53,148 nt of DNA, taken from positions 1-53,148 of IMG/VR virus record IMGVR_UViG_3300037755_000177. The stretch is one strand, 5' to 3'. The notes beneath the pieces were generated by a model. The model was not told the DNA's origin. It was given only the letters and a program-made list of their open reading frames with translations, and did not search any database. The position numbers and the translations under genes were made by a program. Origin of the DNA: a virus. Its lineage: Duplodnaviria > Caudoviricetes. Positions 5,531-53,148 of the stretch are shown here, in pieces; positions within the stretch are counted from its first letter, which is position 1; each line of letters starts with the position of its first letter.

Positions 5531-5952
5531 TCAACAACCCCGAACATCGCGACCGCAACTACGGATCGCGTATTGCCAAAGAACTGAAAACGCCACGCCG
5601 TTCGTTCGCCTCGTTCGCCTCGCTCGTCGGCAAGGCGTGCCTGATCTTGCTCGCCGTTTTATCCTTCGCGCTGATCGCGTTCATACTGGCCGCATTCATG
5701 GTGCCGAAGTCGGGGAGGGCACATGAGGCAATGTCTGGATGGGCCTACGATGCGAGTTGCTGCGGCGGACAAGACTGCTGGCAATTGCCAGAGGGTGCCG
5801 TGAGCGAAACGCTTGCGGGGTTCACGATCAAGGCTTCCGGCGAATTTGTTACCCGCGCCAAGGCAAAGCCGAGCGGCGATGAGTTCTTCCACCTGTGCCG
5901 TTTTCCGGGACCGGCTATCCGCTGTTTGTATTTTCCCAATCGCGGTTTCTGA
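5527..5952 (+). CDS. Membrane-anchored Cys-rich protein
   Basis: TM segment then 'AHE..SGW.Y...CC...DC...C....CLYFP'; ATG at 5527 preferred over the upstream track start. Confidence 0.6.
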   Translation: MINNPEHRDRNYGSRIAKELKTPRRSFASFASLVGKACLILLAVLSFALIAFILAAFMVPKSGRAHEAMSGWAYDASCCGGQDCWQLPEGAVSETLAGFTIKASGEFVTRAKAKPSGDEFFHLCRFPGPAIRCLYFPNRGF

Positions 5953-5975: not shown

Positions 5976-6761
5976 ATGGCTTGGCGAGGGGTAGTCGGGC
6001 GAGGATTCACTGTGCCACAGTTCGGGGAATATGTCGCTTCCCTGAAGTTCGGCGCGTGGCGTCCGTCGTTCGTGACGGTGCATAACACGGCAGCGCCAAC
6101 TATCGCCCAATGGCATTCGCATCCCGGCGCAGTCCGAATGCGCAATCTCGAACACTACTACAAGGTGACGCAGAAATGGTCTGCCGGTCCGCACCTGTTC
6201 ATTGCGGACGATCTGATCTGGGTATTCACGCCGCTCAATGCCCCTGGCGTTCATTCGCCGTCATGGAACGGAATGGCGCTCGGCTTTGAAATGGTCGGGG
6301 ACTATTCGCGTGAGAGCTTCACCGAAGGTAAGGGCAAGGACGTTCGCGACAATACGATTGCGGCGCTTGCCATCACTCACGCCAAGCTAGGCATTAGCCC
6401 CGACACGATCAAGCTGCACAAGGAAGACCCGAGAACCACGCACAACTGCCCCGGCAAGAACGTGGACAAGGTGCTGCTTATTCGTGGGGTGAAAGAATAC
6501 ATGGGCGAGGCGGGCGACCACGAAGCAGACGACACGTCGGAAGCCCCTAAGCCGGACGGAAAGCGGGTTGGCGTAGTCAATACAGACGGCCTGAACATGC
6601 GCGAGTTCGCAAGCGCTTCAAGCCGCGTGCTTGGAAAGCTGGCGGCTGGCGAGCGCGTCATCATTAATCGTGAAGCCCAGAACGGCTCAACGAAATGGCT
6701 TTCGATTATCGCGAACGGCCAATGGGCATGGGTGTCTGCCCGCTACATCGACACGGCCTGA
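5976..6761 (+). CDS. Endolysin: N-acetylmuramoyl-L-alanine amidase (Amidase_2) plus SH3b domain
   Basis: 'VHNTA', 'GPHLF', 'GFEMVG', 'HKE...CPG'; C-terminal 'LNMR...GWVSARY'-like SH3. Confidence 0.85.
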   Translation: MAWRGVVGRGFTVPQFGEYVASLKFGAWRPSFVTVHNTAAPTIAQWHSHPGAVRMRNLEHYYKVTQKWSAGPHLFIADDLIWVFTPLNAPGVHSPSWNGMALGFEMVGDYSRESFTEGKGKDVRDNTIAALAITHAKLGISPDTIKLHKEDPRTTHNCPGKNVDKVLLIRGVKEYMGEAGDHEADDTSEAPKPDGKRVGVVNTDGLNMREFASASSRVLGKLAAGERVIINREAQNGSTKWLSIIANGQWAWVSARYIDTA

Positions 6762-6785
6762 TTTAACAACCAACGGAGAACTACC

Positions 6786-7055
6786 ATGAACAAACTCGCA
6801 CTTGCGGGCGTGCTTGCGTTTGTACTCGGTGGCTGCGCCATCACCGATAAATTATTTTCAAGCGCCGAACAACTTTGCCGCTCGGAAGACAGATTGCACG
6901 CGGGCTACATGCTTCTTGTCGCCCCACGCCGTACGGAAGCACAGGTAGCCAAGGCCGTTTCGTTCCACGGCAAGGTGCAGAAGGTTTGCGCCGAAGGCGG
7001 AACGCTCGACCAGATCAAGGCTGCAATCGAAGCAGCAAGGGTTGCACGCGATTAA
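6786..7055 (+). CDS. Lipoprotein (spanin-like)
   Basis: Lipobox LGGC after a hydrophobic signal; follows the endolysin. Confidence 0.55.
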   Translation: MNKLALAGVLAFVLGGCAITDKLFSSAEQLCRSEDRLHAGYMLLVAPRRTEAQVAKAVSFHGKVQKVCAEGGTLDQIKAAIEAARVARD

Positions 7056-7096
7056 ACCGCGCTCGCCGGTCTGCGAGCATTCAAAGGAGAATTGAA

Positions 7097-7264
7097 ATGT
7101 TCACTGCAATCGACAAAGCTCTGGTCGCCGTCATCATGGGCGCGATCTATCTCGCCAATGAATTTCTCGGCATCAGCTTCGGACTTACCGAAGGTCAGGT
7201 GCAGACCGCCGTTGCGCTTATCACGCCGGTATTGGTCTGGATCATTCCGAACAAAACCGCATGA
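7097..7264 (+). CDS. Holin-like two-TM protein
   Basis: MFTAIDKALVAVIMG...LVWIIPNK; AAGGAG RBS. Confidence 0.6.
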   Translation: MFTAIDKALVAVIMGAIYLANEFLGISFGLTEGQVQTAVALITPVLVWIIPNKTA

Positions 7265-7455
7265 CCATCCTCGAAGCCCTCGCGCTCTACAAGAAGATAA
7301 AACCTTGGCTGGCGAAGCCGTGGGTCAAGTCGATCCTCGGCTTCCTCGCCAAGTTTTTCACTACGCCCCGTCCTGAGGAAAAGAAAGACGCCAAGGGCTG
7401 GACTGAAACCGGGCGCAAGACATTCGACAATCGCCTCGATCCAAAGGATCACTGA
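7261..7455 (+). CDS. Hypothetical lysis-region protein
   Basis: ATGA coupling; amphipathic N-terminus. Confidence 0.5.
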   Translation: MTILEALALYKKIKPWLAKPWVKSILGFLAKFFTTPRPEEKKDAKGWTETGRKTFDNRLDPKDH

Positions 7456-7456
7456 T

Positions 7457-7753
7457 ATGAAACGTGCGCTGATTATTCTGGCGTTTGCGATTGTCGTCGC
7501 GTCCTGCGCGGGCGGGCAAGCGCCGGTTACGAATATCGGTAACGACCTAGCTGGCGCGTGCATCGTGGACAAGGCTGAGTATGACGGCTATCGAGACTGT
7601 TGCGATATCCGCCGCACTTGTACGCAGCGGAAACAGGCGGACGATATTCGTGCGGTCACTCGGTCCGTCTGTGCGAGGGCTGACACTTCCGAAAATATCT
7701 CATTGGTCCGCGCCAACACAACAAAGATTGCAGCCTTGGAGTGCCGCAGATGA
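7457..7753 (+). CDS. Cys-rich lipoprotein
   Basis: Lipobox VASC; multiple Cys. Confidence 0.55.
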   Translation: MKRALIILAFAIVVASCAGGQAPVTNIGNDLAGACIVDKAEYDGYRDCCDIRRTCTQRKQADDIRAVTRSVCARADTSENISLVRANTTKIAALECRR

Positions 7754-8265
7754 GCTGTCACGTCTTCATTATGTCCGGTCTTGGCCATGAATTTTCGGAC
7801 GGAATTATCTATGGCCTTGCGAACCGGCTTATGCGGATGGAAGGCGTTTCCGTCCGCACTGGATCGTTCAGCGAATACGACCTCATGGCTGCTGAAGCCC
7901 GCGCGCTGCCGGAGCATGTCGATATTCTTCAGGTTGGACATTCTCTTGGGGCGTCCGTTGCCGCAGAGTGGGCGCGGCGTGTCAAGCGGATCATCGCCTG
8001 CATCTATGGCTTCGATCCGGCGAACAATCTTGCGGCTAACGCAGGACAATACAAACTAACTAAGGTGCCCGCGAACGTGCGTAAGGCCGTGGACTGGACA
8101 ATTCCCGGCTTCGGCTTGGGCGGCGGCGTTTATGAGGCAGAGAACACGAGCGCCACTGTCACCGAAAGCATCATCGTTCCCTACAGCCACACAAATCTCG
8201 AAGAATCCATCGAGGAACATCTTCGCATTGCCGCGCTGGCAAGACGGCTTGTAGCAGGTGCGTAG
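7750..8265 (+). CDS. Alpha/beta hydrolase (lipase/cutinase-like)
   Basis: GHSLG nucleophile elbow, DP acid motif, late His. Confidence 0.7.
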   Translation: MSCHVFIMSGLGHEFSDGIIYGLANRLMRMEGVSVRTGSFSEYDLMAAEARALPEHVDILQVGHSLGASVAAEWARRVKRIIACIYGFDPANNLAANAGQYKLTKVPANVRKAVDWTIPGFGLGGGVYEAENTSATVTESIIVPYSHTNLEESIEEHLRIAALARRLVAGA

Positions 8266-8346
8266 GAGCAGGGCAGACGATGCTTACGACATCGCCCGCC
8301 CCCGGACGGTATTAGCCGCCCGGCCAACACGAGGGATTAGCTCGCG

Positions 8347-8625
8347 ATGACGGACAATAATGGACACGAGGCGGATGCCCTGCCAACCGGGGAATTTCAG
8401 CCCCATGAAGTGCAGCTTTTACGCCGTATTATGCACGAATACAAAGTGAGCAGAAAGGAACTGCACGCCGTTATCGAGTTTGTTAAGGGCAAGGAACAAT
8501 GGGGCCGAGCCAGAAGAATGGTCTGGAAAGTGTTTGCCGGAGCTGCCGGAACGATTGGTATATTGGCAGCGTTGAGGAACGACCTCGTGGGGCTGATCGG
8601 CTGGATATTCCATAGAGGGCCATAG
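8347..8625 (+). CDS. Single-TM protein (holin/antiholin-like)
   Basis: Helical N-terminus and C-terminal TM segment. Confidence 0.5.
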   Translation: MTDNNGHEADALPTGEFQPHEVQLLRRIMHEYKVSRKELHAVIEFVKGKEQWGRARRMVWKVFAGAAGTIGILAALRNDLVGLIGWIFHRGP

Positions 8626-8627
8626 TT

Positions 8628-9128
8628 ATGCAACCGCTTGCAAGTTCCGCCGTTCGCCGTATCGCCATCGAACATGTGCTGCCGTGGGTGCTCGTTCCGC
8701 TGGCCGTGCTGTCGATCTATACGCTGATTACCGTTGATCGCGTTCCGGCAATCGATGTGGAAACTTTGAAGGGCCGCGCCGATCCGCACCGCGTCATGGA
8801 GGCTGGCGCGTTGACAATCCGCTGGTCCGCCGAGCGCCGTCATGTTTGCCCGGCGACGATCTCAAGAGAGATTGTGGATTCTGCCAATACGGTGTTTCGC
8901 CTTGATCGTGTGTCAGGCCCTACGAGCTTCACAACAGGTCGGGACGAATGGCGTTCGACGATAACCATTCCGCCCGCTGCGGCTTGGGGGCGGGCGATCT
9001 ATCGTTCGTCGATTCAGTACAGTTGCGGGTGGTCGCATTCCATGTTCCCGCTGATTATCCAAAGCCCGGAAGTCCCGTTCGAGATCGTGCCCCTGACGCA
9101 GAAGAAGATTGAGGAATTGAGGGGTTAG
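8628..9128 (+). CDS. Membrane-anchored periplasmic protein, last gene of the late operon
   Basis: N-terminal TM, Cys pair; convergent with the early arm. Confidence 0.55.
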   Translation: MQPLASSAVRRIAIEHVLPWVLVPLAVLSIYTLITVDRVPAIDVETLKGRADPHRVMEAGALTIRWSAERRHVCPATISREIVDSANTVFRLDRVSGPTSFTTGRDEWRSTITIPPAAAWGRAIYRSSIQYSCGWSHSMFPLIIQSPEVPFEIVPLTQKKIEELRG

Positions 9129-9341
9129 CTATTTTGCCTTTTTGCGTTTGCGCCTTTTGTGGCTGTAGTCAGGCAGGGTAACGCGAACGCGCAAATTGTC
9201 GGCGTCCCTGTATGAAAGATCAGTGTCTGCTAGGATGCAGGCGCGGGACAATGCCCTCGCGTGCCTCATAATGTCGTGGCGAAGCCCTGCCGGTATCTTA
9301 CAGTTCTTCGGCCACTCACCTTCGGGTGCAATACGCGGCAT
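9129..9341 (-). CDS. Basic hypothetical protein
   Basis: Strong GGAGAAGGA RBS before ATG 9341. Confidence 0.5.
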   Translation of the reverse strand: MPRIAPEGEWPKNCKIPAGLRHDIMRHARALSRACILADTDLSYRDADNLRVRVTLPDYSHKRRKRKKAK

Positions 9342-9396
9342 CTTTCCTTCTCCTTCTCTCCTAGCGCAAAGCCTTATGGGGTAAGGCGTTGGGGCC

Positions 9397-9627
9397 TTAT
9401 TCTCCAAATGAACGACGGCGGGTTTTGTTGTTCGAGTGCTGCTTACGGGCGTAAGCATGCGCCTCGGCCACGGCATCCTCCGACCAGCAACATTGGATGC
9501 CGCGCCCCTGTCCAGAAATTCCATGAGGGGCGTTCTTAAGAAGCCCGCGATACTTCCACTTGCGAAGCAGATCGACGGGGACATCAATTACCCGCGCTAC
9601 CTCTGCGGTGGTCAGTTCCCGAGTCAT
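9397..9627 (-). CDS. MerR-like HTH DNA-binding protein
   Basis: 'LTTAEVARVIDVPVDLLRKWKYRGLL'. Confidence 0.65.
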   Translation of the reverse strand: MTRELTTAEVARVIDVPVDLLRKWKYRGLLKNAPHGISGQGRGIQCCWSEDAVAEAHAYARKQHSNNKTRRRSFGE

Positions 9628-9641
9628 GGCGGCGTGATCCT

Positions 9642-9869
9642 TCAATGTTTCGGTGGCTCCGGGCACGGCTGCCAGTCCGTCGGATTAACGCAACCATCGT
9701 GCGCGTCGGTCCAGTGTGAGCCGGTTTCGTACCATCCCCACTCGCCTTCCTTTTCGTAAAAGCCCATGCAGACCCATTGATCTGGCAAGCTGCCGAGAAG
9801 CAGATTACGTCCATCCTTCGGCGCAGTTTCGATGGGCTGCCATATTTCTAGGTGGTATTCTTTCTCCAT
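9642..9869 (-). CDS. DUF551-family protein
   Basis: 'WQPIETAPKDG...PTDWQP.PEPP'. Confidence 0.8.
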   Translation of the reverse strand: MEKEYHLEIWQPIETAPKDGRNLLLGSLPDQWVCMGFYEKEGEWGWYETGSHWTDAHDGCVNPTDWQPCPEPPKH

Positions 9870-9895
9870 CTTCCTTCTCCATGCACTGAGTAAGA

Positions 9896-10150
9896 TTATT
9901 GGACTAGCAGCCCAGCGTCTGCTTTGTAGTCTTCCAGATACTCAGCCATATGCGCTCGCATTTCAGCGCATTCCGCGTAGTCATCGCGTTTGACGATCTT
10001 AAATCCGCCCTGCCAAAGAGTGGACATGAGTTCGTGGGAGTCGGCAGCAAGCCATTCAGGGTGTTCGCCCCTTGCATTGAGGAAGCAAGACAGCATGAAC
10101 ATTTCAATGATGCTCCTAGCCTCGACTTCGAGTTTGCCATCGTCGCTCAT
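9896..10150 (-). CDS. Hypothetical protein (cassette-like, between direct repeats)
   Basis: AAGGAG RBS adjacent to the repeat. Confidence 0.55.
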   Translation of the reverse strand: MSDDGKLEVEARSIIEMFMLSCFLNARGEHPEWLAADSHELMSTLWQGGFKIVKRDDYAECAEMRAHMAEYLEDYKADAGLLVQ

Positions 10151-10439
10151 TTAAATCTCCTTGGACTAGCAGCCCATTTATTCTGGCTTCGCGCCTTCAG
10201 TACTTGGGCTAGGTGCCGTGTTCTTTACCCATCCACAATCTGGCGACAGAAAAAACTTCAACGGTAGCGAGAAGCGAGTTGGTCGCTTCCATCGCTTGTG
10301 CCATCGCTCAAGCGTTATCTCCTTGCTTGTGCAACACAAGACGCGGGCGGTTAGCGGGCCTTCGCCATAGTTTGAAACGAAACGATCCTCTTGGCTCCAA
10401 TCAAACTGCACCTTGCTCTCTCCTTGGACTAGCAGCCCA
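9899..10439. repeat. Three direct 16-bp repeats TTGGACTAGCAGCCCA separating single genes
   Basis: Copies at 9899, 10161 and 10424; periods 262 and 263 bp. Confidence 0.9.
10178..10411 (-). CDS. Hypothetical protein (cassette-like, between direct repeats)
   Basis: GTG start in the GAGAGCAAGGTG motif. Confidence 0.5.
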   Translation of the reverse strand: MQFDWSQEDRFVSNYGEGPLTARVLCCTSKEITLERWHKRWKRPTRFSLPLKFFLSPDCGWVKNTAPSPSTEGAKPE

Positions 10440-10450
10440 CTTGGGCGTTG

Positions 10451-10527
10451 TGGTCAGGGCGGTTGGATTCGAACCAACGATTTCCGCATTCCAAGTGCGG
10501 CGGATTACCGGACTTTCCCACACCCTG
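10451..10527 (-). tRNA. tRNA-Pro(UGG) with encoded CCA
   Basis: CAGGGTG/CGCCCTG acceptor, CCGCA-CTTGGAA-TGCGG anticodon arm, GTTGG-TTCGAAT-CCAAC T arm, A73-CCA. Confidence 0.93.
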
Positions 10528-10531
10528 TAAC

Positions 10532-11878
10532 TCAATCCTTGAACGGGTCGAACTCGCCTTCTCCCGCCATTGCGACGGCAAAAGGGCGAAGCGTATGCAG
10601 CACTTTCACCGACCCCACGTGGTGAGCAAGAACTTCCGGCAAGCGGCGATAGGCCATCGGGCTTTCGTCCAAGTCTGCGCCGATCAATGTCACGCCACGC
10701 TCTTGAAGCCAAGCGTCCATCGTCGCGCGGTCAAATCGGCGCTTCGCTTCCTTGCGCCCGAATAATCGCCCCGCTCCGTGGATTGTCGAATATAGCGATG
10801 CCTTCGCCTCTGGGCTATCGACACCTTCGACAATCACCGCGTCGTCGCCCATTGATCCGCCGACGAACCCGCGCTGGCCGGGGAAGGCTGGTGTTGCGCC
10901 CTTGCGCACAACCCACAAATCGCGCCCGCCGTGGTTCTCACGCCATGCGTAGTTGTGATGGTTATGCACCATGTCTGTCACGGCCCCGCCGATGATCTTG
11001 CGCACCCGCTCAATCACCCACTCGCGGCCCGCATAGGAATAGCGCCCGGCCAATTCCATCGCGGCTATATAGCGACGGCCAAGCTCGGAATCCTCGTCGA
11101 TCACGGCGGGTGGCACGTTCATGCCGTCCTTGCCGCCAGCGGCTTTCAGGTAGCGCGTGGCGCTCGTATGCCCAAGCCCGCGCGAACCGAAGTGGACGCC
11201 AATCCAAGTAAAGCCATCCTCGTCGCGCATCAAATCGACGTAGTGATTGCCGGAGCCGACCGTGCCTAATTGGCTGACGGCCTTCTGACGATACTCGCCC
11301 ATATCGGATTCGAGCCAAGCGTCGGCATCGTCAAACAGTTCGTGTTCTACTCGTTCCTCGTTTGTGCGGCCAACGCCAAACGAAATAACCTTCGCAACGT
11401 CCTTGATGATAGGACCGATACGATCCTTGATTGCCTCGAAGGGCGTATCGAGGCGAACGGCCATGTTGCCGCAGCCAATATCAAAGCCGACGCCTGAAAT
11501 GCTGATTTGCTTTTCATAGGCGATCACGCCGCCTACCGGCTGCGCGTAGCCCAAGTGCCCATCAGCGCAGATCACGCCCGCCACGACATTGCCGACGCCC
11601 ATGCAGTTGCGCATTTGGGCAATCGTATTTTCGTCATGGTCCCCGAATATCTTGAGCGGGCTATTCTGAAACTCTGGCTCTTGCGGTTTGATAGCAATGT
11701 CGGCGGCTAACTGCGCCGCCTCTTTCGCAACGTGTTCTTTGCGCGCATCGTCGCGGAACGTGCACCACGCAGGCATCGTGCGATCACTGCCCGGCTTCTC
11801 AATGCGAGCATCGGGATCAAGCCCGGCAGCAATCGCCAGCTCGCGGCAGCGTTCATAATATGGATCAGGCTTTCGCAT
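10532..11878 (-). CDS. rtcB: RtcB-family RNA ligase with an N-terminal extension of about 70 aa
   Basis: DGHLGYAQPVGG, GFDIGCG, QLGTVGSGNHY, HFGSRG, HNHHN, RKGAT, HGAGR, DESPMAYR. Confidence 0.92.
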   Translation of the reverse strand: MRKPDPYYERCRELAIAAGLDPDARIEKPGSDRTMPAWCTFRDDARKEHVAKEAAQLAADIAIKPQEPEFQNSPLKIFGDHDENTIAQMRNCMGVGNVVAGVICADGHLGYAQPVGGVIAYEKQISISGVGFDIGCGNMAVRLDTPFEAIKDRIGPIIKDVAKVISFGVGRTNEERVEHELFDDADAWLESDMGEYRQKAVSQLGTVGSGNHYVDLMRDEDGFTWIGVHFGSRGLGHTSATRYLKAAGGKDGMNVPPAVIDEDSELGRRYIAAMELAGRYSYAGREWVIERVRKIIGGAVTDMVHNHHNYAWRENHGGRDLWVVRKGATPAFPGQRGFVGGSMGDDAVIVEGVDSPEAKASLYSTIHGAGRLFGRKEAKRRFDRATMDAWLQERGVTLIGADLDESPMAYRRLPEVLAHHVGSVKVLHTLRPFAVAMAGEGEFDPFKD

Positions 11879-11950
11879 AGTCTATAATCCTTCTCTCACA
11901 GGGCGGGCAGACGATGGGTGTAGGGTGTCCGAACAAATACGGGACAGAAC

Positions 11951-12135
11951 TGCAAACCGACTTGCAAACCGGCTGAGGGAAAATCGGGCTAAGTACTGGT
12001 CGGAGCGCCGAGATTTGAACTCGGGACCCCTAGTCCCCCAGACAGGGGCGGTTATTGGAATCCCTAGCGAAACTTTGCAAACCATCTGCGTTCGTCCGTA
12101 TTGAATCGTAAAGGGAATTTAGCCTATTGCAAACC
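11951..12135. repeat. Integrase arm-type sites TGCAAACC x4 flanking the attP core
   Basis: Copies at 11951, 11963, 12076 and 12128. Confidence 0.7.
11997..12043 (-). other. attP core: 3' half of host tRNA-Pro(GGG)
   Basis: GTCTGGGGGACTAGGGGTCCCGAGTTCAAATCTCGGCGCTCCGACCA; no 5' half or D arm; just downstream of the integrase. Confidence 0.85.
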
Positions 12136-13147
12136 GTCTTTCGAGCTTTGCGATGGCGTTCTCCGCGAGTATCCGCGTTCGCGAAAGATACTTGTCGAGG
12201 ATCGCGGCGATATTCCTGAGGCTGTGCCCGGTGATAGCGGCGATCTCCTGGGGCGTGCATCCGGCCTCCGAAAGCATGGTGATTGCCGTGCCCCTCAGAT
12301 CGTGGAAATGAAGCCCGCCAAGCCCTGCCTCGTCGCTCGCGGCCTTCCATGCCCGATTGAATCCCCGACGATCCCATGGCTTGCCGGTCGGGCTTAGGAG
12401 GATAAGCGCGGCCTTCCTCGGGGCTTTGTCGAGCGCGTCCTTGAGTGCCTTCGTGCAAGGCACTCGCACGCGGCGCTTGCGTTTGCTCTGGCGCAGCGTA
12501 ATGGCCTCCCCGTCATAGGCGGGCCATGTGAGCGCCCTAAGGTCCCCTTGGCGCTGACCGGTATGCAGGGCGAGCATCAAGGCCATTTGAAGCTCAGGCG
12601 ACGCCACTGCGCAAAACGCCTTGATATGCTCCGGTAGCCAGATCATGTCGCTACGGTCGGAGCTATAGACCCGCTTCCATCCCCTCAGCGGGTTTTCGTC
12701 GATCATCCCCCGTTCCTCGGCCCACGCCAGCACTTTCGCCAGATGGCCTAGCGTATTGTCGGCACCCCTCGGGTGCTTGACGGCCATGCGGTCGCGCCAC
12801 GCGAGAAAATCAGGCCGCACCTTCTTTCGTTCGGCCAATGCTGAAACCGGCAAAGTTCCATATTCAGCATCGATCTTGCGGAACAGATAGGCAGCTATCT
12901 TGCGGCTTTCGGCTTCCAATTTCAGGAAGTCCGGCGATTCCTCATAGGACCGCACAAGGCTTGCCAGCGTGCCGCGCACATAGTCATTCCGTGACGCCTT
13001 GGCGTTGGCGAGCGAGGCGAGAAATTCAGGCGATCCCGGCTGGCCGGTTAATTTGATCCGGGTCGCGCGGTGATAGAAATAGGTTCGGGACGTCCCGTCA
13101 GCGAGGCGTTTGGTCGCCGTGTTGATTCCTGGCAGGCGAACGCGCAC
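12119..13147 (-). CDS. int: Tyrosine integrase
   Basis: 'TGQRQGDL', 'HFHDLRGTA', 'ITGH', 'KY' catalytic set; probable GTG start at 13147. Confidence 0.92.
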   Translation of the reverse strand: MRVRLPGINTATKRLADGTSRTYFYHRATRIKLTGQPGSPEFLASLANAKASRNDYVRGTLASLVRSYEESPDFLKLEAESRKIAAYLFRKIDAEYGTLPVSALAERKKVRPDFLAWRDRMAVKHPRGADNTLGHLAKVLAWAEERGMIDENPLRGWKRVYSSDRSDMIWLPEHIKAFCAVASPELQMALMLALHTGQRQGDLRALTWPAYDGEAITLRQSKRKRRVRVPCTKALKDALDKAPRKAALILLSPTGKPWDRRGFNRAWKAASDEAGLGGLHFHDLRGTAITMLSEAGCTPQEIAAITGHSLRNIAAILDKYLSRTRILAENAIAKLERRFAIG

Positions 13148-13352
13148 GTTTCCACTCGTCAAAGACGGACCCGCCTTCATCGGAGGGCAAGCCGCTAGCG
13201 CGATCAAGGGCAAGGTCGAGCGCCTTTCGGTCCCACCTGTGCGTATTGGGGATAGGACCGGGCAGGATACCTTTTCTGCGCCAAGCATCGAAGCTCTCCA
13301 CTGATATTCCTATATGCTGTGCCGCCTCGTCGCGGGTCATACAGCGGCTCAT
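13098..13352 (-). CDS. xis: Excisionase-like HTH protein
   Basis: 'MTRDEAAQHIGIS...FDAW...LPGP...RWDRKALD', directly upstream of int. Confidence 0.75.
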   Translation of the reverse strand: MSRCMTRDEAAQHIGISVESFDAWRRKGILPGPIPNTHRWDRKALDLALDRASGLPSDEGGSVFDEWKRARSPARNQHGDQTPR

Positions 13353-27788: not shown

Positions 27789-27862
27789 CCCCGCTTCGTT
27801 CAACGGCAGGACACCTGATTTTGAATCAGGAGATCGTGGTTCGAATCCATGCGCGGGAGCCA
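27789..27862 (+). tRNA. tRNA-Gln(UUG) with encoded CCA; imperfect acceptor stem
   Basis: GTTC/GGAC D stem, CCTGA-TTTTGAA-TCAGG anticodon arm, CGTGG-TTCGAAT-CCATG T arm, G73-CCA. Confidence 0.85.
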
Positions 27863-28989: not shown

Positions 28990-29504
28990 TGGCTGCTCCT
29001 AAAGGAAATCAGTTCTGGAAAGCCAGAAGTTCGCACGGTCGAAATCCCATATTCGATACACCCGAGAGGCTCTGGGAATCCTGTTGCGAGTATTTCGATT
29101 GGGTCGAGCAAAACCCACTTCTGGAGGATAAGGCGTTTGCCTATCAGGGCTCAGTAACTCATGAGCCGATTTCCAAGATGAGGGCAATGACTATCGCGGG
29201 GCTCTGTATCTTCCTCGACATCAGCCAGCAAGCCTGGGGCGAGTACAGGACGCGCGAAGGTTTTGGTGAAGTCACTAGCCGCGTGGACAGTATTATCCGA
29301 ACGCAGAAGTTCGCCGGGGCAGCGGCTGATCTACTCAACCCAAATATCATTGCTCGCGATCTTGGGCTTGTCGAGCGTAACGAACTAACCGGCAAGGACG
29401 GCGGGCCGATTGAGACTGTCGCATTGAACGACACCGAAGCCGCACGGGAAGTTTCGTTCCTGCTGGCCCGCGCCGTCAAGCAAAAGCAAGAGACTGCACA
29501 TTGA
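28989..29504 (+). CDS. terS: Terminase small subunit (P22 gp3-like)
   Basis: [22 protein letters not shown]...[22 protein letters not shown]. Confidence 0.92.
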
Positions 29505-30340
29505 TAGACGGCCAATCGATCCTCATAACGGGGGGGTCGGGAAGTTTCGGAAGCGCCTTTGTCCGCCACCTGCTGAAAGAACACAGTCCAAAGCGCGTTA
29601 TCGTGTTCTCGCGGGACGAGCACAAGCAAGCCCGGATGGGCGAAGAAATACAGGACAGCAGGCTCCGGCTATTTATCGGAGACGTGCGGGACCGCGACAG
29701 GTTGCGCAGGGCGTTCGAGGATGTCGAGATTGTTGTCCACGCGGCTGCACTGAAGCGGATCGAGGTCGGGGCCTATAATCCAGGAGAGATGGTCAAGACC
29801 AATATTCTCGGGGCGGTGAACGTGATTGAAGCATCTCAGGATGCGGGTGTTCATAGGGTGGTCGCGCTCTCGACCGACAAGGCATACCAGCCGGTAAGTC
29901 CTTATGGACAGACCAAGGCATTGGCAGAAAGCCTGTTCCTGAACGCCAACAATACGCGAGGCAAAACCGGGCCGATATTCTCGGTCACTCGCTATGGCAA
30001 TGTAGCCGGGTCCGCCGGTTCGGTCATTCCGAAATGGCGCGGGATGAACGGTGTGGTGCCGGTGACCGATCCTGAATGCACGCGGTTCTGGATGACGATG
30101 GATGAGGCGGTCGCTCTGGTGGTTCGGACTATCGAGACGATGCGCGGGGGTGAATTGAATATCCCCGAGTTGCCAGCTTATCGGCTGGCCGATTTGGCTG
30201 AGGCGATGCGCGCCAGAATGAATGTTATTGGATTGCCAGATTATGAAAAGCTGCATGAGAGCATGGCGGACGGTAATTCGAGCAACACGGCACGGCGCAT
30301 GAACGTTGATGAATTGCGAGAGGCGCTGGTTACGGTATGA
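29501..30340 (+). CDS. UDP-GlcNAc 4,6-dehydratase (PseB/FlaA1/FnlA-like)
   Basis: [45 protein letters not shown]. Confidence 0.9.
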
Positions 30341-31113
30341 GTTTTGCCGACAGGGGCTTCACCCATATCAAGCGCTTCTTCGATCTGGGCGACCTGACTG
30401 AATTCGAGCAATCGGTCACAAGGCTCTATTCGCTCCAGGCCCACAAGATAGCCGACTACGGCGATTTGCCGGACGATCTACCGGCGATCTGCGAGGCGAT
30501 GGAAGGCAAGGACAAGGAAGCGCTCTATCAGGTTCAGAAGATGTTGCCGCGTTCCCCGAGGGTGCGGGATTTGTTCGGCAGCCAATTCAGGCAGACATGC
30601 GCGGGCTTGCTTCGTTGTAATGAGGCACGCTTGTTGATCGATGGGCCGGGCCTGCTTATCAATCGTCCGAACACGACACGGCTGCTTTATAAATGGCATA
30701 GCGAAGCGCACTACTATCCCAAGCGCAGACGCTTCCTGAACATCTGGTTTCCGGTCTTTGCCGACAAGACCAAGGACAATGGGGTTATGAGCGTGAAGCT
30801 CGGGAGCCATAAGCGCGACTGGCCGTTTGCGGAATATAGCGAAGGCCAGAACGCTTTTCGTCAATTCGAGGTCCCGGAGAATTTCGTGACTGAATTCCCT
30901 GAGCATGTTTGCGAGAGCAAGCGCGGGGACTTGATTATCTTTGATCGCAATTTGATTCATCGTTCCAATCCGAACACATCGGACGGCTATAGCTTCGCGT
31001 GCGTTACGCGGGTGTGGACGCCTGAGGATGATCTGACATTGAGCGGGGATTTTGATGTTCAGCCTTATGTTGGGCGCGATTGCGGGCGGGCTAATCTGGT
31101 GGTGAAGCCGTGA
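30337..31113 (+). CDS. PhyH-family Fe(II)/2OG dioxygenase
   Basis: 'WHSE..Y', 'NIWFP', 'GSH', 'GD.IIF...LIHRS..N'. Confidence 0.8.
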   Translation: MSFADRGFTHIKRFFDLGDLTEFEQSVTRLYSLQAHKIADYGDLPDDLPAICEAMEGKDKEALYQVQKMLPRSPRVRDLFGSQFRQTCAGLLRCNEARLLIDGPGLLINRPNTTRLLYKWHSEAHYYPKRRRFLNIWFPVFADKTKDNGVMSVKLGSHKRDWPFAEYSEGQNAFRQFEVPENFVTEFPEHVCESKRGDLIIFDRNLIHRSNPNTSDGYSFACVTRVWTPEDDLTLSGDFDVQPYVGRDCGRANLVVKP

Positions 31114-31316
31114 GAAAGCTAGGACGAAGGCAATTCAATCTCCGTATTCATGGTGATCTTAGGAATAGGCTGAAGAAAGCCGCCAAAGAAAACGGCGTTT
31201 CAATAAATGCAGAGACGACAAAGCGGTTGGAGCTTTCATTTGAGCCGGAAAGCGAAAGGCTTGGGCGCATCGCTGACATGGTGGCTGAGCGTATCGTTGG
31301 TAGGCTAGGTGGTTAA
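31110..31316 (+). CDS. Arc-family ribbon-helix-helix protein
   Basis: 'QFNLRI...LR..LK.AAKENG.SINAE...RLE.SF'. Confidence 0.85.
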   Translation: MRKLGRRQFNLRIHGDLRNRLKKAAKENGVSINAETTKRLELSFEPESERLGRIADMVAERIVGRLGG

Positions 31317-31319
31317 GCC

Positions 31320-31598
31320 GTGAGGAAAAAGCGAACGCCGGGGCAGGTAGCAATTACCGCAAAGCCTGAGCGAGCCAAGCCTAACCAATATACACAATGG
31401 CTTACACCTACAGACGAATCCAACCATCCGATTGGATGTTGCGACTGCGGTCTTATCCACGTTTTCCAATTTGGAAGGCTGCCTGATGGGCGGCTGGCCT
31501 ACAGAGCGAAGCGCGCAGTAGCCTTAACCAAGGCGAGGCGTAAGCACATGCAGCGGAAGCACCCTCCATGGCTGGAATATACGCACTCGTGGCGGTAG
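31320..31598 (+). CDS. Small CCDCGL.H protein
   Basis: Zn-ribbon-like motif. Confidence 0.55.
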   Translation: MRKKRTPGQVAITAKPERAKPNQYTQWLTPTDESNHPIGCCDCGLIHVFQFGRLPDGRLAYRAKRAVALTKARRKHMQRKHPPWLEYTHSWR

Positions 31599-31599
31599 C

Positions 31600-32295
31600 G
31601 TGGTTCGGAACATTTGTTTGCATATTCTTGGTGGCGCGCCAAGTCGGCGTGGCGCTTCAGTGAGAACCACCGCCGAGATTGAACAGTCCTACGACCTTCA
31701 AGCCGGAACCTACGTAGCTGCATTAGCCAATCAGACCTATGCCGATCAAAAGACCGAAATAGGCAAGAAGCTGGCCAGCGTCATTGAGCAATACGAGCCG
31801 GTCAATCTATTGGACGCAGGCACAGGCGAGGCGACAACGCTTGTACCGCTTCTGCTGGCAATGAAGGTCAAACCCAGACGGGTTCTAGGATTCGACATAT
31901 CGCTTCCAAGGCTCGACATCGCCCGCAAGCACATGCGGGACAATGGCCTGACTGGAATGTTTATTCAGTCGCCATTGGATGCAATCCCGTTGGGTAGCAA
32001 GTCGTTCGACGTGGTTACGACCTATCACGCGATAGAACCGAATCGTGGACGCGAGATGGAAATACTGACGGAGTTATTGCGGGTGACGCGCAAGGCTCTT
32101 GTCATGGTGGAGCCGTCTTATGAAATTGCACATAAGAGTGCTCGCGCTCGGATGGATAGTCTTTGCTATGTGCGTGGTTTGCCTAGCGTGGTTTCAGGCC
32201 TTGGCTACGAGGCTAAGTGCGAGGCTTGGGGCTTGGATGCGAACCCGGAGAACCCGGCGGCTTTGATCGTGGTGGAGAAGAATTCTGGCGTCTGA
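31600..32295 (+). CDS. Class I SAM-dependent methyltransferase
   Basis: LLDAGTGEATTL, GFDIS..RL, 'IPL...SFDVV.TYHAIEPN.GRE'; start may be GTG 31660. Confidence 0.85.
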   Translation: MVRNICLHILGGAPSRRGASVRTTAEIEQSYDLQAGTYVAALANQTYADQKTEIGKKLASVIEQYEPVNLLDAGTGEATTLVPLLLAMKVKPRRVLGFDISLPRLDIARKHMRDNGLTGMFIQSPLDAIPLGSKSFDVVTTYHAIEPNRGREMEILTELLRVTRKALVMVEPSYEIAHKSARARMDSLCYVRGLPSVVSGLGYEAKCEAWGLDANPENPAALIVVEKNSGV

Positions 32296-32427
32296 TGGAA
32301 ATGCTTAATCAGCGCCTCGGTTGGAAGGTTCATTACGCACCCTAGCTCAACGTCTGTGATGGACGTTGGTCAGCAACGGGGGGTTGGTTGCCTAGGCTAA
32401 ACCCTTAAACGGAGCCAACCACGCCAG

Positions 32428-33129
32428 ATGCTCAAAACCCGCATAATCCCCGTCATCTTCCTGATGGACGGGCGGATCGTCAGAAGTGAGCGGTGCAAAG
32501 AATTCAAGGTAATCGGCAATCCGTTCGACGAGCTGGCTCGTTACGACGAATGGCAGGCCGACGAGGTTTGCTACATCGACATAACGAGGAACGGCCCCGG
32601 TATCGGGGATGAATTGCTCAGGGCGATTGCAGACCGTGCATTCATGCCGCTCACCGTGGGCGGGAATGTCAGGACATTGGACGACGCGGCTAGATTAATC
32701 AGGAACGGTGCGGACAAGGTATTGATCGGCAGGGGTGCGAAAATGCCCGGCCTGATCGAGAGCATCGTGGGCAAGTTCGGCTCACAGGCGGTTGTGGTTT
32801 CCATAGATGACGGCTCGCAGGAAAGCGCTCAACAAGCGGAGAGTCGTGGGGCGGGGGAAATCTTCCTTCATTTCACCGAACGAGATGGAAGCGGTCTTGG
32901 CTATGACTGCGATGCGATTCGATCCGTTACGAAGGCAGTGGGTATTCCCGTCATCGCCTCTGGTGGTGTCGGAGAACTACGTCATTTTGCAGATGGATTG
33001 CGCTCTGGCGCGGATGCAGTAGCTGCCGGAAACTTCTTTCACTTCACGGAGAACGCCTACCGACGCGCCAAGCAATATCTAATCAAAGAGGGGTTTAGAA
33101 TCCGGTATCCGTATGCACGCGCCGCTTGA
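32428..33129 (+). CDS. HisF-like TIM barrel (WbuZ-type, glycan-associated)
   Basis: MLKTRIIP, ADE...IDI, PLTVGG, GADKV, FGSQAVVVSID, RDGSG.GYD, IPVIASGG. Confidence 0.88.
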   Translation: MLKTRIIPVIFLMDGRIVRSERCKEFKVIGNPFDELARYDEWQADEVCYIDITRNGPGIGDELLRAIADRAFMPLTVGGNVRTLDDAARLIRNGADKVLIGRGAKMPGLIESIVGKFGSQAVVVSIDDGSQESAQQAESRGAGEIFLHFTERDGSGLGYDCDAIRSVTKAVGIPVIASGGVGELRHFADGLRSGADAVAAGNFFHFTENAYRRAKQYLIKEGFRIRYPYARAA

Positions 33130-34264
33130 AGCCCGCGTTCACCCTCCGGTGATGCAGTATTGCACAAGATGCTGCTACCCGATGATCGCGGCGGCACCTG
33201 TCCATTTGGACGAGGAACAGGTCTGCTCCGGTTGCCGGACGAAAGACGAGCAGAAAAGCATCGACTGGCAATCCAGGAAGAAGCTGTTTCAGGCATTGTG
33301 CGACGAATACCGCAGGCCGGACACTTACGATTGCTTGATCCCGGTAAGCGGAGGCAAGGATTCGTTCTGGCAGATTCACACCGTCAAGCAATACGGCATG
33401 AACCCACTACTCGTCACCTACAATGAGAACAACGAGACGGAGGTCGGCAAGCGCAATATCCAGCGGATGAAGGACAAGTTCGGCTGTGATTATTTCAATT
33501 TCACACCGAGCGTCCGCGTCCTGAAATCCATGAACCGTGTCGGCCTCAGGAAGATGGGCGATTGCGACATGCACGCTCATATGGGGATTAATTCAGTCCC
33601 GGTGCAACTCGCGGTCAAATACAAAATCCCGCTGGTCTTCTGGGGTGAGCATGGATTTATGGACTTGGGGGGCATGTATTCCTTCAAGGACATGATCGAA
33701 TACACCAACCGTTGCCGGAAAGAGCATTTGCTGCATGGTTGCGATTGGGAAGATTTTATTGGCGAGGAAGGGCTGACCGGGAAAGACCTGCAATGGGCGA
33801 AATACCCGAGCGACGATGAAATCGAGGAAGTCGGCGTTCGTGGAATTTATATCTCCAATTACTTCGGCTGGAACCAGAATAGTCAAGTCGAGGAAATGCG
33901 TTCCTTGTACGGGTTCGAGGTTAATCCATCACCGATGGACCGGACCTATAAACGGGATTCAAATTTGAACAATATGCACGATGGCGTGCACGACTATCTG
34001 AAATACATCAAGTTCGGTTATGGGCGCTGCACCGATCATGTGTGCCGGGATATTCGTGCCGGTAAGATGACGCGCGACCGTGGCATCGATTTAATCCGCC
34101 AGTACGATCATGTTGTCCCGAGCGATCTTGTGCGTTGGCTGGATTATGTCGGCTTGACCAGAACCGAGTTTGAGGAAACGGCGGATCAATTCCGCGACCC
34201 GCGCGTGTGGGCAAAGAACGGTGACGGGCAATGGACGAAAGATGCAATTTGGAATCACAATTGA
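33113..34264 (+). CDS. N-acetyl sugar amidotransferase (WbuX/PseA-like)
   Basis: CxxC...CxxC, PP-loop YDCLIPVSGGKDS, 'YLKYIKFGYGR'; start may be 33152. Confidence 0.88.
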   Translation: MHAPLEARVHPPVMQYCTRCCYPMIAAAPVHLDEEQVCSGCRTKDEQKSIDWQSRKKLFQALCDEYRRPDTYDCLIPVSGGKDSFWQIHTVKQYGMNPLLVTYNENNETEVGKRNIQRMKDKFGCDYFNFTPSVRVLKSMNRVGLRKMGDCDMHAHMGINSVPVQLAVKYKIPLVFWGEHGFMDLGGMYSFKDMIEYTNRCRKEHLLHGCDWEDFIGEEGLTGKDLQWAKYPSDDEIEEVGVRGIYISNYFGWNQNSQVEEMRSLYGFEVNPSPMDRTYKRDSNLNNMHDGVHDYLKYIKFGYGRCTDHVCRDIRAGKMTRDRGIDLIRQYDHVVPSDLVRWLDYVGLTRTEFEETADQFRDPRVWAKNGDGQWTKDAIWNHN

Positions 34265-50925: not shown

Positions 50926-53148
50926 GTTACGAGGAATGCGTTGCTGAAATCATCGCGGCGGCAGGCAGGCCGCTTAATGACGACGAACTAAGCGACCTTC
51001 TGGAAGAACTACAGCGGCGCATTCGTCAAGAACAGCAGATGCGCGCGGGCGACGATCTGGATTCAATCGTCCGGGACGCGGCCGATTCCTACGCGCAGGA
51101 CATGGCCGCCGCCGCAACAATCGAAAAGCGCAATGCGGCTATCAACCTGAAGCGCAAACTAGAGGCCATCGACTTTGTAAAAACTCGGTTTGCGGACAAC
51201 CAGGCAGAGGGTGTTGAGGCCTATCTGGTCGGCATCAACCGGCCAGTTAAGGGCGCACGCAACAGCGCGGCAGCAGAGCAAAACTCACTAAAGGATAGAT
51301 ACCTTGGCGGGTTCATTGCCGATGTGGAAAAGCGCGGGCTCTGGAAGGTGTTTGTTCGCGGCGACATGGATCAAGACGTTGCGCGGGCTTTATGGGCGCG
51401 CAACCGCGAGCAGCCCATGCCCGTCGATGTCCCGCGCGAGGCGGACGAAATCGCTGAAGTCATTGCCAAGTGGCAGGACATAGTTCGGCAGGACGCTAAC
51501 GGAGCCGGGGCGTGGATCAAGAAAATGCCCGGCTACATCGTGCGGCAATCGCACGACATGATAAAGATTCGTCAGGCCGGGTATGAGGCGTGGCGCGATT
51601 GGATACTACCGAGACTCGATGGCAACCGTACTTTTGAGGGTGCCGACCCCGAGAAGTTTCTAAGGGGCGTCTATGACGGCCTAGCCTCTGGCGTCCATCT
51701 GAAAAGCGGTGCGCAGCCAGCGTTCAAGGGGCCGCGCAATATCGCCAAGAAAGCCTCGGCGGAACGGGTACTGCATTTCCGCGATGCCGATGCGTGGTTT
51801 GAGTATAACCAGCAATTCGGCACGGGAAGTCTGCGCGAGGCGTTGCTTCGCGGGTTTGAAATTAACGCGCAGACAACCGGCCTCATGCGCCGTCTTGGGA
51901 CCAACCCGGAGGCAAACCTTAACAGCATTATTGACACGCTAACCAAGGGCATTGCCGACCCTGAAAAGAGGGCCGCATTCGTTCAGGCGTCACGCGGGAA
52001 ACTGCGCAACCAATATCTTGAACTGGACGGATCAACGCGGACTCCCGTTAATCATATGGGCGCTCGTATTGGTTCTGGCGTCCGCATTACGCAGCGCATG
52101 GCAAAGTTGGGAGCATCGCTGCTGTCCCAATTTGGGGATATCCCATTGTACGCATCCGAGATGCGTTATCAGGGCGGCACGATGTTGGGCGGGATTGGGG
52201 AATCAATCGGCAATTTGTTCCGGGGGCGCGGGTCTGCCGAGAAGCGTGAAATCGGTGGAATGCTTGGCGTCGTTTCGGATGTCATGTCCGGTGAGGTAAC
52301 GGCGCGGTTTTCGATTGCCGACGATGATGTTCCTGGCATGATGACGCGCCTGCAACAAAAGTTCTTCAAGTGGAACGGCATGAGTTGGTGGACAGACGCG
52401 CAACGGCGCGGTGCCATCTTTGCAATGTCGCATCGCCTCGCACTTAATATAGATAAACAGTGGGCGCAAATCGACCCCGACTTGCAACGCACGCTGCGTC
52501 TGTTCGCAATAGACGAACCGGAATGGAGCATCATCCGCACGGCGTCCACGAAAGAAGCGGACGGGCGGGCGTATGTCGTGCCCGAGACAATTCTGGAATT
52601 GCCGGACGGGCCATTTAGTGCGTTGCTGACGCGACAGGGTGTTAACCCGACGCCACGCCGCATTAAAGATTTGAAGAATGAGCTTGCCGATAAGGTGCGT
52701 AATTACTTCATTGATCGCGCAGGTTACGCGACAATCATGCCCGATCAGCGCACTCGCGCCCTTATGCAGCGCGGCACAAGGCCGGGAACCGTAGAGGGGG
52801 AATTTCTCCGGTCGATTGGCGAACTGAAGGCGTTTCCGGTTTCTGTTCTACAAAAGTCGGTTGGTCGTGAATTATACGGGCGCGGAGCAAATACGCTTGG
52901 GGAAGCTCTGCGCAACGGCAACGGTGAAATGCTTGGAATGGCGCAGTTGATTTTATGGACGACTGCGTTTGGTTACATATCAATGTCGGCAAAGGACTTG
53001 GTGAAGGGTCGCGCACCGCGCGACCCGGCTGCGTACAAGACATGGCTTGCAGCAATGGCGCAGGGCGGCGGTGCCGGTATCTATGGAGACTTCCTGTTCG
53101 GTGAGGTTCGCAACAGATTTGGTGGGGGGCTCCTATCAACCCTTGCCG
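50922..53148 (+). CDS. Large internal virion (ejection) protein, about 830 aa when joined to 3-410
   Basis: ATGA coupling at 50922; MSYEECVAEI...; absent from the ORF track because the frame runs off the end; in frame with 51-410. Confidence 0.8.
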   Translation, partial: MSYEECVAEIIAAAGRPLNDDELSDLLEELQRRIRQEQQMRAGDDLDSIVRDAADSYAQDMAAAATIEKRNAAINLKRKLEAIDFVKTRFADNQAEGVEAYLVGINRPVKGARNSAAAEQNSLKDRYLGGFIADVEKRGLWKVFVRGDMDQDVARALWARNREQPMPVDVPREADEIAEVIAKWQDIVRQDANGAGAWIKKMPGYIVRQSHDMIKIRQAGYEAWRDWILPRLDGNRTFEGADPEKFLRGVYDGLASGVHLKSGAQPAFKGPRNIAKKASAERVLHFRDADAWFEYNQQFGTGSLREALLRGFEINAQTTGLMRRLGTNPEANLNSIIDTLTKGIADPEKRAAFVQASRGKLRNQYLELDGSTRTPVNHMGARIGSGVRITQRMAKLGASLLSQFGDIPLYASEMRYQGGTMLGGIGESIGNLFRGRGSAEKREIGGMLGVVSDVMSGEVTARFSIADDDVPGMMTRLQQKFFKWNGMSWWTDAQRRGAIFAMSHRLALNIDKQWAQIDPDLQRTLRLFAIDEPEWSIIRTASTKEADGRAYVVPETILELPDGPFSALLTRQGVNPTPRRIKDLKNELADKVRNYFIDRAGYATIMPDQRTRALMQRGTRPGTVEGEFLRSIGELKAFPVSVLQKSVGRELYGRGANTLGEALRNGNGEMLGMAQLILWTTAFGYISMSAKDLVKGRAPRDPAAYKTWLAAMAQGGGAGIYGDFLFGEVRNRFGGGLLSTLA
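53005..53148. repeat. Terminal overlap, copy 2
   Basis: Matches 1-144. Confidence 0.95.

Follow-up and report, generated by a model that had tools for sequence, protein, structure and literature searches.

Why would a temperate phage keep an RNA ligase gene and a tRNA gene directly beside the site at which its genome recombines with the host chromosome? The question is raised by IMG/VR record IMGVR_UViG_3300037755_000177, a phage record of 53,148 bases that is classed as linear and 85% complete and that we analyzed over its whole length (hereafter, the window). The phage is a temperate T7-like podovirus in which rtcB, the ligase gene, and a gene for tRNA-Pro(UGG) follow the phage attachment site (attP). 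The answer that we favor, with a probability of roughly 55%, is that rtcB and its tRNA-Pro form a mobile cassette carried as the first cargo beyond attP, that the pair would combine tRNA repair with a spare tRNA, and that it would be expressed by read-through from the integrase operon.

A preliminary description of the locus had listed, along the minus strand, the integrase gene, attP, 118 nucleotides (nt), rtcB, 4 nt, tRNA-Pro(UGG), and small open reading frames (ORFs). Every element of this order was recovered from the ORF list, Pfam, ARAGORN, and Rfam. The longest ORF of the tyrosine integrase runs from 13288 to 12119 on the minus strand (Pfam Phage_integrase, 1.4e-17; PHROG phrog_1 integrase, 1.9e-40); relatives of the protein align from about residue 41 to 48 onward, and the true start may be downstream. 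The integrase gene ends 75 nt before a 47-nt attP core (11997..12043, minus strand). Next come the 118-nt spacer (11879..11996, minus strand), presumably the P' arm of attP, and rtcB itself (10532..11878, minus strand). The tRNA-Pro(UGG) gene (10451..10527, minus strand) starts 4 nt (10531..10528) past the rtcB stop codon.

Does rtcB encode a working ligase? Its 448-amino-acid (aa) product is annotated as a 3'-phosphate/5'-hydroxyl RNA ligase (Pfam RtcB, PF01139, 4e-64; PHROG tRNA splicing ligase, 8.1e-73), and the full-length match to PF01139 scores 217.9 bits against a cutoff of 27. In a phmmer alignment, D95, C98, N202/H203, H234, H329, and H404 of P. horikoshii RtcB (1uc2/4dwr) are all kept, and the corresponding residues D133, C136, H212, H229, H308, and H367 of the window protein are invariant across 32 relatives. 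We take D95, C98, H203, H234, H329, and H404 of the P. horikoshii enzyme to be the metal-binding residues and the GMP-carrying histidine, with which H367 of the window protein aligns. By these catalytic residues, the window protein is predicted to be an intact GTP- and metal-dependent ligase. It scored below the cutoffs of both the E. coli-type model (NCBIfam NF007153, PRK09588; 112.9 versus 407) and the PrfH-linked model (TIGR03073, release_rtcB; 87.8 versus 271.8), and we therefore place it, at the level of protein models, in the RtcB family but in neither named NCBIfam subtype. At its N terminus, the protein is extended by about 75 aa (residues 1 to 75, 11654-11878; DPYQxRARELA...PAWCxFRD...). 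This extension is conserved in the alphaproteobacterial clade and missing from the more distant viral relatives at loci L094, L101, L102, and L105; it gave no Pfam match and no Atlas feature match.

Is the 47-nt element next to the integrase gene an attachment site? It had been read as the 3' half of a tRNA-Pro(GGG) gene, and this reading was confirmed: the core is identical at 47 of 47 positions to the full 78-nt tRNA-Pro(GGG) gene of one genome (G026:C135), covering the part from the anticodon loop to CCA. ARAGORN and Rfam did not call the core as a tRNA, as expected because it is part of one. When 401 genomes of one bacterial family were surveyed with a 45-nt core and up to two mismatches, the core was found in 98 of them, and the reversed-pattern control returned 0; the exact core occurred at a single place, in G026. 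Several genomes contain two or three same-strand copies. In G111, a full tRNA-Pro(GGG) is followed by fragments of 46 and 48 nt at distances of 48 and 68 kb, left by other elements. These fragments are of like extent, and therefore this part of the tRNA is a well-used attachment site and the 47-nt copy in the window has the expected extent. An integrase gene beside a copy of a tRNA 3' end, the arrangement by which a tRNA-integrating phage is recognized, is thus present, and on these alignments we regard the predicted attP as correctly assigned. Because the core is common among the genomes sampled from that family, the host probably belongs to the Xanthobacteraceae as GTDB defines them.

The common host form of the core (L111-L130) has a single-base difference, which falls within the anticodon stem on its 3' strand. 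A hybrid tRNA in such hosts could hold a stem mismatch, depending on the position of strand exchange, and the phage supplies another tRNA-Pro. Tandem elements were also seen at tRNA-Pro(GGG), where a full tRNA is accompanied by two 3' fragments in the same direction (G111:C1 2180397-2248887, with L146, L151, and L148; G128:C6 363311-384514).

To place the ligase gene among its relatives, one genome per species was scanned, giving 188 stretches, of which the best 80 were kept; with 29 viral loci, they make a set of 109 related loci (110 with the window). Identity to the window gene is 74 to 89% among these 80, whose genomes are those of Bradyrhizobium, other Xanthobacteraceae, Hyphomicrobium, and Acetobacteraceae. 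The phage rtcB is of host type, because these chromosomal copies are flanked by ordinary chromosomal genes. DNA likeness between the window and the 109 loci starts and stops at the start and stop codons of rtcB (11878..10532), and it extends through the tRNA-Pro only in L085, L086, L087, L091, L092, and L098. The 59 other proteins of the window found matches, weak ones, in just three of the 80 genome loci. On this evidence rtcB is a shuffled mobile cassette with sharp edges, and it is shared by chromosomes, tRNA arrays, and temperate phages of soil alphaproteobacteria.

The gene is repeatedly linked to tRNA genes. In 21 of the 110 loci, rtcB is preceded on its own strand by a tRNA gene or fragment whose end is no more than 300 nt away: rtcB lies 19 to 187 nt behind tRNA genes in 16 genome and 2 viral loci and behind tRNA fragments in the window, L090, and L101. 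At 10 genome loci, for which 4 kb upstream were examined, it follows a same-strand array of 5 to 33 tRNAs that ends 31 to 185 nt before rtcB (L043, at about 6050-9890, L045, L036, L042, L047, L048, L050, L057, L023, and L025; Xanthobacteraceae-type genomes). On the other side, six of the 110 loci have a tRNA-Pro(UGG) gene on the same strand that begins no more than about 20 nt past rtcB. The distance from the rtcB stop codon to that tRNA is 0 to 16 nt in the window, L085, L086, L092, and L076; in L087 the tRNA stands at the aligned end of rtcB, with uncertain spacing. Locus L076 continues from rtcB into tRNA-Pro(tgg) (+20) and tRNA-Gln(ttg) (+99), and so holds both tRNA species of the window phage, whose second tRNA gene is a tRNA-Gln(UUG) (27789..27862, plus strand; ARAGORN). 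Solitary tRNAs beside chromosomal rtcB are arranged head-to-tail in 5 to 6 loci and tail-to-tail in 7 (L043, L057, L064, L074, L077, L080, and L082). The closeness of rtcB to tRNA genes and attachment sites is therefore general and recurrent, and the co-directional layout is not. In G405, a lone rtcB is found 157 nt behind tRNA-Glu. This tRNA gene adjoins recJ in 21 of 30 related loci, and only 1 of the 30 has rtcB, which marks the rtcB copy as inserted immediately behind a housekeeping tRNA gene. No att repeats were seen around the chromosomal tRNA-rtcB pairs of L013, L020, L031, and L033, and likewise none flanks the rtcB of G405.

Other neighbors of the relatives were recorded as well. Just past rtcB, L043 has a gene for an aminoacyl-tRNA editing domain and an opposite-strand tRNA-Gly. 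In Acetobacteraceae, relatives lie directly behind Ro60/TROVE genes (L038 8353-9933, L059 8820-9932, and L079 8356-9939), and no Y RNA family of Rfam was detected at these three loci. In four Hyphomicrobium loci, rtcB follows pheS directly (L065 8653-9726, L067, L071, and L078). Bradyrhizobium loci contain pairs of tRNA-like genes 2.3 to 3.4 kb downstream of rtcB (L004 14737-14877, L019 13905-14045, L027 13892-14034, and L056 8167-8307), some of which ARAGORN reports as tRNA-??? with a two-letter anticodon; their Rfam tRNA scores are 35 to 56 bits.

A linkage between rtcB and attachment sites, which the preliminary description had raised as a matter for survey, recurs among viral contigs. Two of the 29 others, L090 and L101, have a Pfam-confirmed integrase and, after it, a fragment with T arm, acceptor, and CCA that goes uncalled by ARAGORN. 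Beyond the fragment, at a distance of 103 nt (L090) or 228 nt (L101), comes rtcB in the same orientation. The fragment in L090 resembles tRNA-Arg(CCG). By tblastn, the window integrase has no match in L090 and 32% identity to the integrase of L101, and the L101 RtcB is 51% identical to that of the window. The integrase-attP-rtcB layout is thus present in 3 of 30 viral contigs, counting the window, and is built from different parts each time; the figure is a raw count.

What is the tRNA of the cassette? The gene is called by ARAGORN and scores 64.7 bits with the Rfam tRNA model (gathering score, 29). It has the cloverleaf, an NGG anticodon, C1-G72, A73, and an encoded CCA; C1-G72 and A73 are identity elements of bacterial tRNA-Pro. 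In one respect it departs from the bacterial form: its anticodon loop is CUUGGAA, so that position 37 is A rather than G. Bacterial tRNA-Pro carries m1G37, made by TrmD at G37. This modification has been linked to proline codons (PMC8643618, in the part available to us). A37 occurs in 18 of the 23 rtcB-linked tRNA-Pro genes (the window, L023, L036, L042, L045, L047, L057, L072, L077, L082, L085-L087, L091, L092, and L098-L100, some of which also have C33), and G37 in the other 5. By comparison, all 29 rows of chromosomal tRNA-Pro(GGG) and (CGG) have G37, many of these rows being identical sequences. A host tRNA-Pro(UGG) for direct comparison did not emerge: a degenerate pattern gave 0 matches, and BLAST with tRNA-Pro(GGG) returned GGG and CGG genes only. 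Two neighboring tRNA-Pro(UGG) genes of Rhodococcus phage NiceHouse (L184 2501-2659) differ at this position, with A37 in one and G37 in the other. A limited literature search, short of a full review, found no account of A37 tRNA-Pro in phages.

The A37 variant may make the tRNA independent of TrmD or let it evade a nuclease. We know of no nuclease that acts on tRNA-Pro in this host. VapC-mt11 cuts all three tRNA-Pro species of M. tuberculosis after GG in vitro and leaves a 5'-OH, according to the accessible part of PMC6459853. An idea that RtcB could not seal VapC cuts was dropped, since the same part of that source gives VapC products 5'-OH ends.

How would the cassette be expressed? In the spacer, a Shine-Dalgarno-like AGAAGGA precedes the rtcB start, and a 9-nt direct repeat, CGGTTTGCA, occurs at 11971-11963 and 11959-11951. 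The spacer of L090 (about 5925-5950) contains a 10-nt direct repeat, GTTTCACGCG, twice; both repeats may be arm-type integrase sites. Beyond about 20 nt, the window spacer has no DNA likeness to any of the 109 rtcB loci. Promoter-like matches numbered 2, against 1.8 expected from shuffles, and the sole match in the spacer overlaps the rtcB start codon; the scan used the sigma-70 consensus, which is of little value in alphaproteobacteria. No terminator-like site was found on the minus strand between 9500 and 13500, and the spacer folds no better than its shuffles (z = 0.66; 145 of 200 fold at least as well). As far as the scan reaches, then, the earlier statement that the 118 nt lack an obvious terminator is correct, with the reservation that terminator scans discriminate poorly in these genomes. 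Terminator-like sites were found in 2 of 21 tRNA-to-rtcB spacers and, among 100 stretches taken from downstream of rtcB as controls, in 12, and because the controls themselves score so rarely, the missing terminator says little.

We propose that a host-type rtcB and its tRNA-Pro(UGG) landed, as a mobile cassette, beyond attP at the far end of a leftward integrase operon. This minus-strand block extends from about 24361 to 9397 and includes an HTH_3 regulator, and its leftward order is ParB-like, Gam, HNH, HTH/Xis-like, Int, attP, and rtcB. Because the spacer has no recognizable promoter, the free phage would most likely transcribe the cassette by read-through from the integrase operon while it infects a cell or is induced; read-through at that stage would explain the position of the cassette without any role in the lysogen. 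RtcB would probably reseal RNAs with 2',3'-cyclic-phosphate or 3'-phosphate ends to 5'-OH ends, the likeliest substrates being tRNAs cut by anticodon nucleases or toxins, and the A37 tRNA-Pro would act as a spare. Integration would cut the cassette from the integrase operon and set it 118 nt behind a rebuilt tRNA-Pro(GGG) gene in the same direction, and read-through from the host tRNA promoter would then be physically possible.

This last step is the basis of an alternative, already raised in the preliminary description, in which integration matters more. A promoter-less cassette would be wired by integration to the strong promoter of host tRNA-Pro(GGG), lysogens would make RtcB and the spare tRNA constantly as a lysogenic-conversion function, and tRNA processing at both flanks would free the mRNA. 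We consider such promoter capture possible but, on balance, somewhat unlikely. The geometry suits it, as the preliminary description had noted: the host tRNA-Pro(GGG), 118 nt, rtcB, 4 nt, and tRNA-Pro(UGG) would all point in one direction, with the host 5' and phage 3' parts rebuilding tRNA-Pro(GGG) and the integrase at the far end of the prophage. The short distance without a terminator-like or credible promoter-like site is in its favor, as is the habit of the rtcB clade to stand behind same-strand tRNA genes or fragments. So is the use of different integrases and different tRNA targets by the integrase-attP-rtcB phages of L090 and L101, and the rtcB of G405 resembles the retained first gene of a decayed element. 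In E. coli, the thrU-tyrU-glyT-thrT-tufB operon has a protein gene on a tRNA promoter, freed by tRNA processing. It provides a model for a tRNA-Pro(GGG)-rtcB-tRNA-Pro(UGG) unit in a lysogen; however, the E. coli operon is chromosomal and proven, whereas the joining in the window would arise only by site-specific recombination and its co-transcription is hypothetical. An earlier suggestion that integrated elements couple transcriptionally to tRNA genes is cited by Panis et al. (2010; PMC2951348, available to us in part).

The search for an integrated form argues against promoter capture. In the genomes and contigs searched, no integrated form with attL and attR was found, and none placed tRNA-Pro(GGG) ahead of rtcB in a lysogen. 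No RtcB was encoded near the att pattern in G026, G111, G128, G028, or G118. The occupied tRNA-Pro(GGG) sites of G111, G128, and G028 lacked rtcB, G118 gave no match, and G317 was left out of this comparison. At seven further occupied sites (L138-L144), the ORF layout was unlike that of the window, and no ORF of rtcB length stood directly behind the tRNA. Integrase relatives, at 55% identity or less, are encoded in 46 of the 401 family genomes, and none adjoins a pattern site. The exact 29-nt junction of tRNA end and P' arm had 0 matches in metagenome and viral contigs (the window's own record excluded), and tRNA-Pro(GGG) was upstream of rtcB in 0 of the 80 genome loci. Promoter capture is further disfavored by the absence of att repeats at chromosomal tRNA-rtcB pairs, by solitary tRNAs that are about as often tail-to-tail as head-to-tail, and by a terminator scan that does not discriminate. 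Moreover, cargo genes often gather beside att sites anyway.

A bolder version extends the same logic across phages. Several unrelated temperate phages would put a promoter-less rtcB, alone or with a tRNA, directly behind attP, and integration would build an operon of host tRNA, ligase, and spare tRNA. The cassette would thereby leave the early control of the phage and come under a host tRNA promoter controlled by growth rate. Stand-alone rtcB genes that directly follow housekeeping tRNA genes in chromosomes would be first genes left over from decayed elements of this type, and the A37 tRNA would need no TrmD or would escape a nuclease. We regard this version as speculative and unlikely.

Several observations also weigh against the reading that we prefer, in which read-through from the integrase operon supplies a tRNA repair enzyme and a spare tRNA. 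No tRNA nuclease or defense gene was recognized in the window with PADLOC and annotation; the two PADLOC matches, a weak capH match on the HTH_3 protein (E = 0.0006) and mad2 on a methyltransferase, are both non-nuclease. The spacer may have a promoter of its own, because the sigma-70 scan is of little value here. Since relatives of rtcB adjoin Ro60/TROVE and pheS genes, the substrates of RtcB need not be tRNAs alone. Lastly, the phage uses CCA (17.1% versus 13.5%) and CAA (36% versus 32%) more than do host ORFs, differences that are small and drawn from a host sample of 15 crude ORFs.

These codon figures fit an account in which tRNA-Pro(UGG) and tRNA-Gln(UUG) serve A-ending codons and rtcB hitchhikes without a role in conflict. 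Both phage tRNAs do read A-ending codons, and the window has 55.9% G+C compared with 60 to 66% in stretches of G026. Codon supply of this kind is nevertheless improbable: the join between rtcB and the tRNA is conserved across unrelated phage backgrounds, and plain supplementation does not predict the prevalence of A37 among the rtcB-linked tRNA-Pro genes.

A further alternative takes the Ro60/TROVE neighbors (L038, L059, and L079) as its starting point. RtcB would mend other RNAs, such as rRNA or Y-RNA and Ro-associated RNAs, and the tRNA genes would merely be landmarks for recombination or processing. A pair of RtcB and PrfH repairs damaged ribosomes, according to the accessible part of PMC9304027, which favors this account. 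The window protein, though, falls below the cutoff of the PrfH-linked model, and Pfam and PHROG annotation found no prfH, Ro gene, rtcA, rtcR, or rsr in the window. Enrichment beside tRNA genes and arrays is also far stronger, at 21 of 110 loci, and we judge repair of other RNAs highly improbable. The RtcR-controlled rtcBA operons of E. coli and Salmonella and the rsr-Y RNA-rtcBA systems share the enzyme family with the window, and some relatives in its clade lie behind Ro60/TROVE genes. The window differs from these systems in that it lacks rtcA, rtcR, and rsr, scores below the E. coli-type cutoff, and has the N-terminal extension.

How does the preferred reading, a mobile repair-and-replace cassette, compare with systems already described? 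The preliminary description had associated such tRNA repair modules with large lytic phages, and this association does not hold: temperate cluster K1 mycobacteriophages carry a tRNA together with RtcB and have been given the same protective reading. In the part of their paper available to us, Pope et al. (2011; PMC3203893) report that a tRNA and RtcB occur together only in the temperate cluster K1 mycobacteriophages, and they propose protection from tRNA cleavage. Like the window phage, the K1 phages (e.g., Anaya, with RtcB as gp88 and one tRNA) are temperate, have genomes of 50 to 60 kb, and combine RtcB with a tRNA. Unlike it, they are siphoviruses of actinobacteria, and that part of the source does not place their rtcB right next to the tRNA or attP and offers its function as speculation.

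A tie between rtcB and long tRNA operons, based on neighborhood and co-regulation, was made by Santamaria-Gomez et al. (2021; PMC8421152, available in part). In the Anabaena trn operon and other L-arrays, according to the available text, rtcB is near and co-induced with extra tRNA operons, and repair plus replenishment was proposed; relatives of the window gene similarly follow their arrays of 5 to 33 tRNAs. However, L-arrays are stress operons of chromosomes or plasmids, whereas the window has a phage att site and no array. An L-array has at least 10 tandem same-direction tRNAs beside rtcB, and only a single tRNA adjoins rtcB in the window; examples of relatives that qualify are L043 (33 same-strand tRNAs upstream), L045 (33), and L036 (21).

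Phage T4 Pnk and Rnl1 heal and reseal tRNA-Lys cut by PrrC, acting on cyclic-phosphate and 5'-OH ends. This is likewise a phage-encoded pathway for a break in the anticodon loop, and it is mentioned in the accessible part of PMC10264068. The T4 pathway belongs to another enzyme family, uses other chemistry, and has been shown experimentally, whereas the RtcB of the window, known from sequence, would seal directly via GMP without kinase or phosphatase. Phage tRNAs themselves evade tRNA-targeting defenses, as reported in partially available sources for T5 tRNA-Lys against PARIS and for tRNA-Tyr against Retron-Eco7. Anticodon-loop variants are among the phage tRNAs that escape defenses in the accessible part of PMC10264068, and the tRNA-Pro of the window is like them in having an anticodon loop that departs from the host form (A37 versus the G37 of the host tRNA-Pro genes seen); that part of the source names neither tRNA-Pro nor RtcB. 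The combination of RtcB and tRNA in temperate phages of 50 to 60 kb (2011) and the link between tRNA arrays and RtcB (2021) were thus known beforehand. What differs is that rtcB abuts an A37 tRNA-Pro, that it is the first cargo beyond attP, and that the layout recurs in two other phage lineages.

The remainder of the window is consistent with a free phage. Its ends (1-144 and 53006-53148) overlap by 143 nt at 98.6% identity within a virion gene (phrog_684) that spans the end and the start of the record. Because of this overlap and the single virion gene across both ends, the record is a circularly closed map of the free phage rather than a prophage. A T7-like structural block on the plus strand encodes the small and large terminase, head-tail adaptor, major head protein, tail proteins, internal virion proteins, and endolysin. 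Between the terminase genes (29501-34264, plus strand) is a group of genes for sugar or modification enzymes, encoding a Polysacc_synt_2 epimerase/dehydratase, a PhyH-type dioxygenase, a methyltransferase, and a HisF-like protein, together with an unassigned ORF of 383 aa. On the minus strand, a small HTH protein (13098..13352) is a candidate excisionase by weak matches to HTH_17 (E = 0.0015, below the family cutoff) and to phrog_66 excisionase/regulator (2e-06). Four small minus-strand ORFs with weak Pfam or PHROG matches end the leftward block (10411..10178; 10150..9896; 9869..9642, DUF551-like; and 9666..9397, MerR-like). These small ORFs (9397..10411) have no relatives beside rtcB in the 109 loci and appear, by this comparison, to lie outside the mobile cassette.

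The locus bears on a wider conflict, in that tRNA cleavage is a common weapon both against viruses and between bacteria, and phage tRNAs and ligases are known answers to it. Its A37 tRNA-Pro also touches on why m1G37 matters for proline decoding. If wiring to a host tRNA promoter proved true, a prophage would have a simple new means of placing an accessory gene under different control with nothing but recombination. If not, the window phage would be one more temperate phage with RtcB and a tRNA, of the kind proposed in 2011, whose role has been hypothetical since then. In soil alphaproteobacteria, host-type rtcB moves as a unit and time and again settles next to tRNA genes and att sites.

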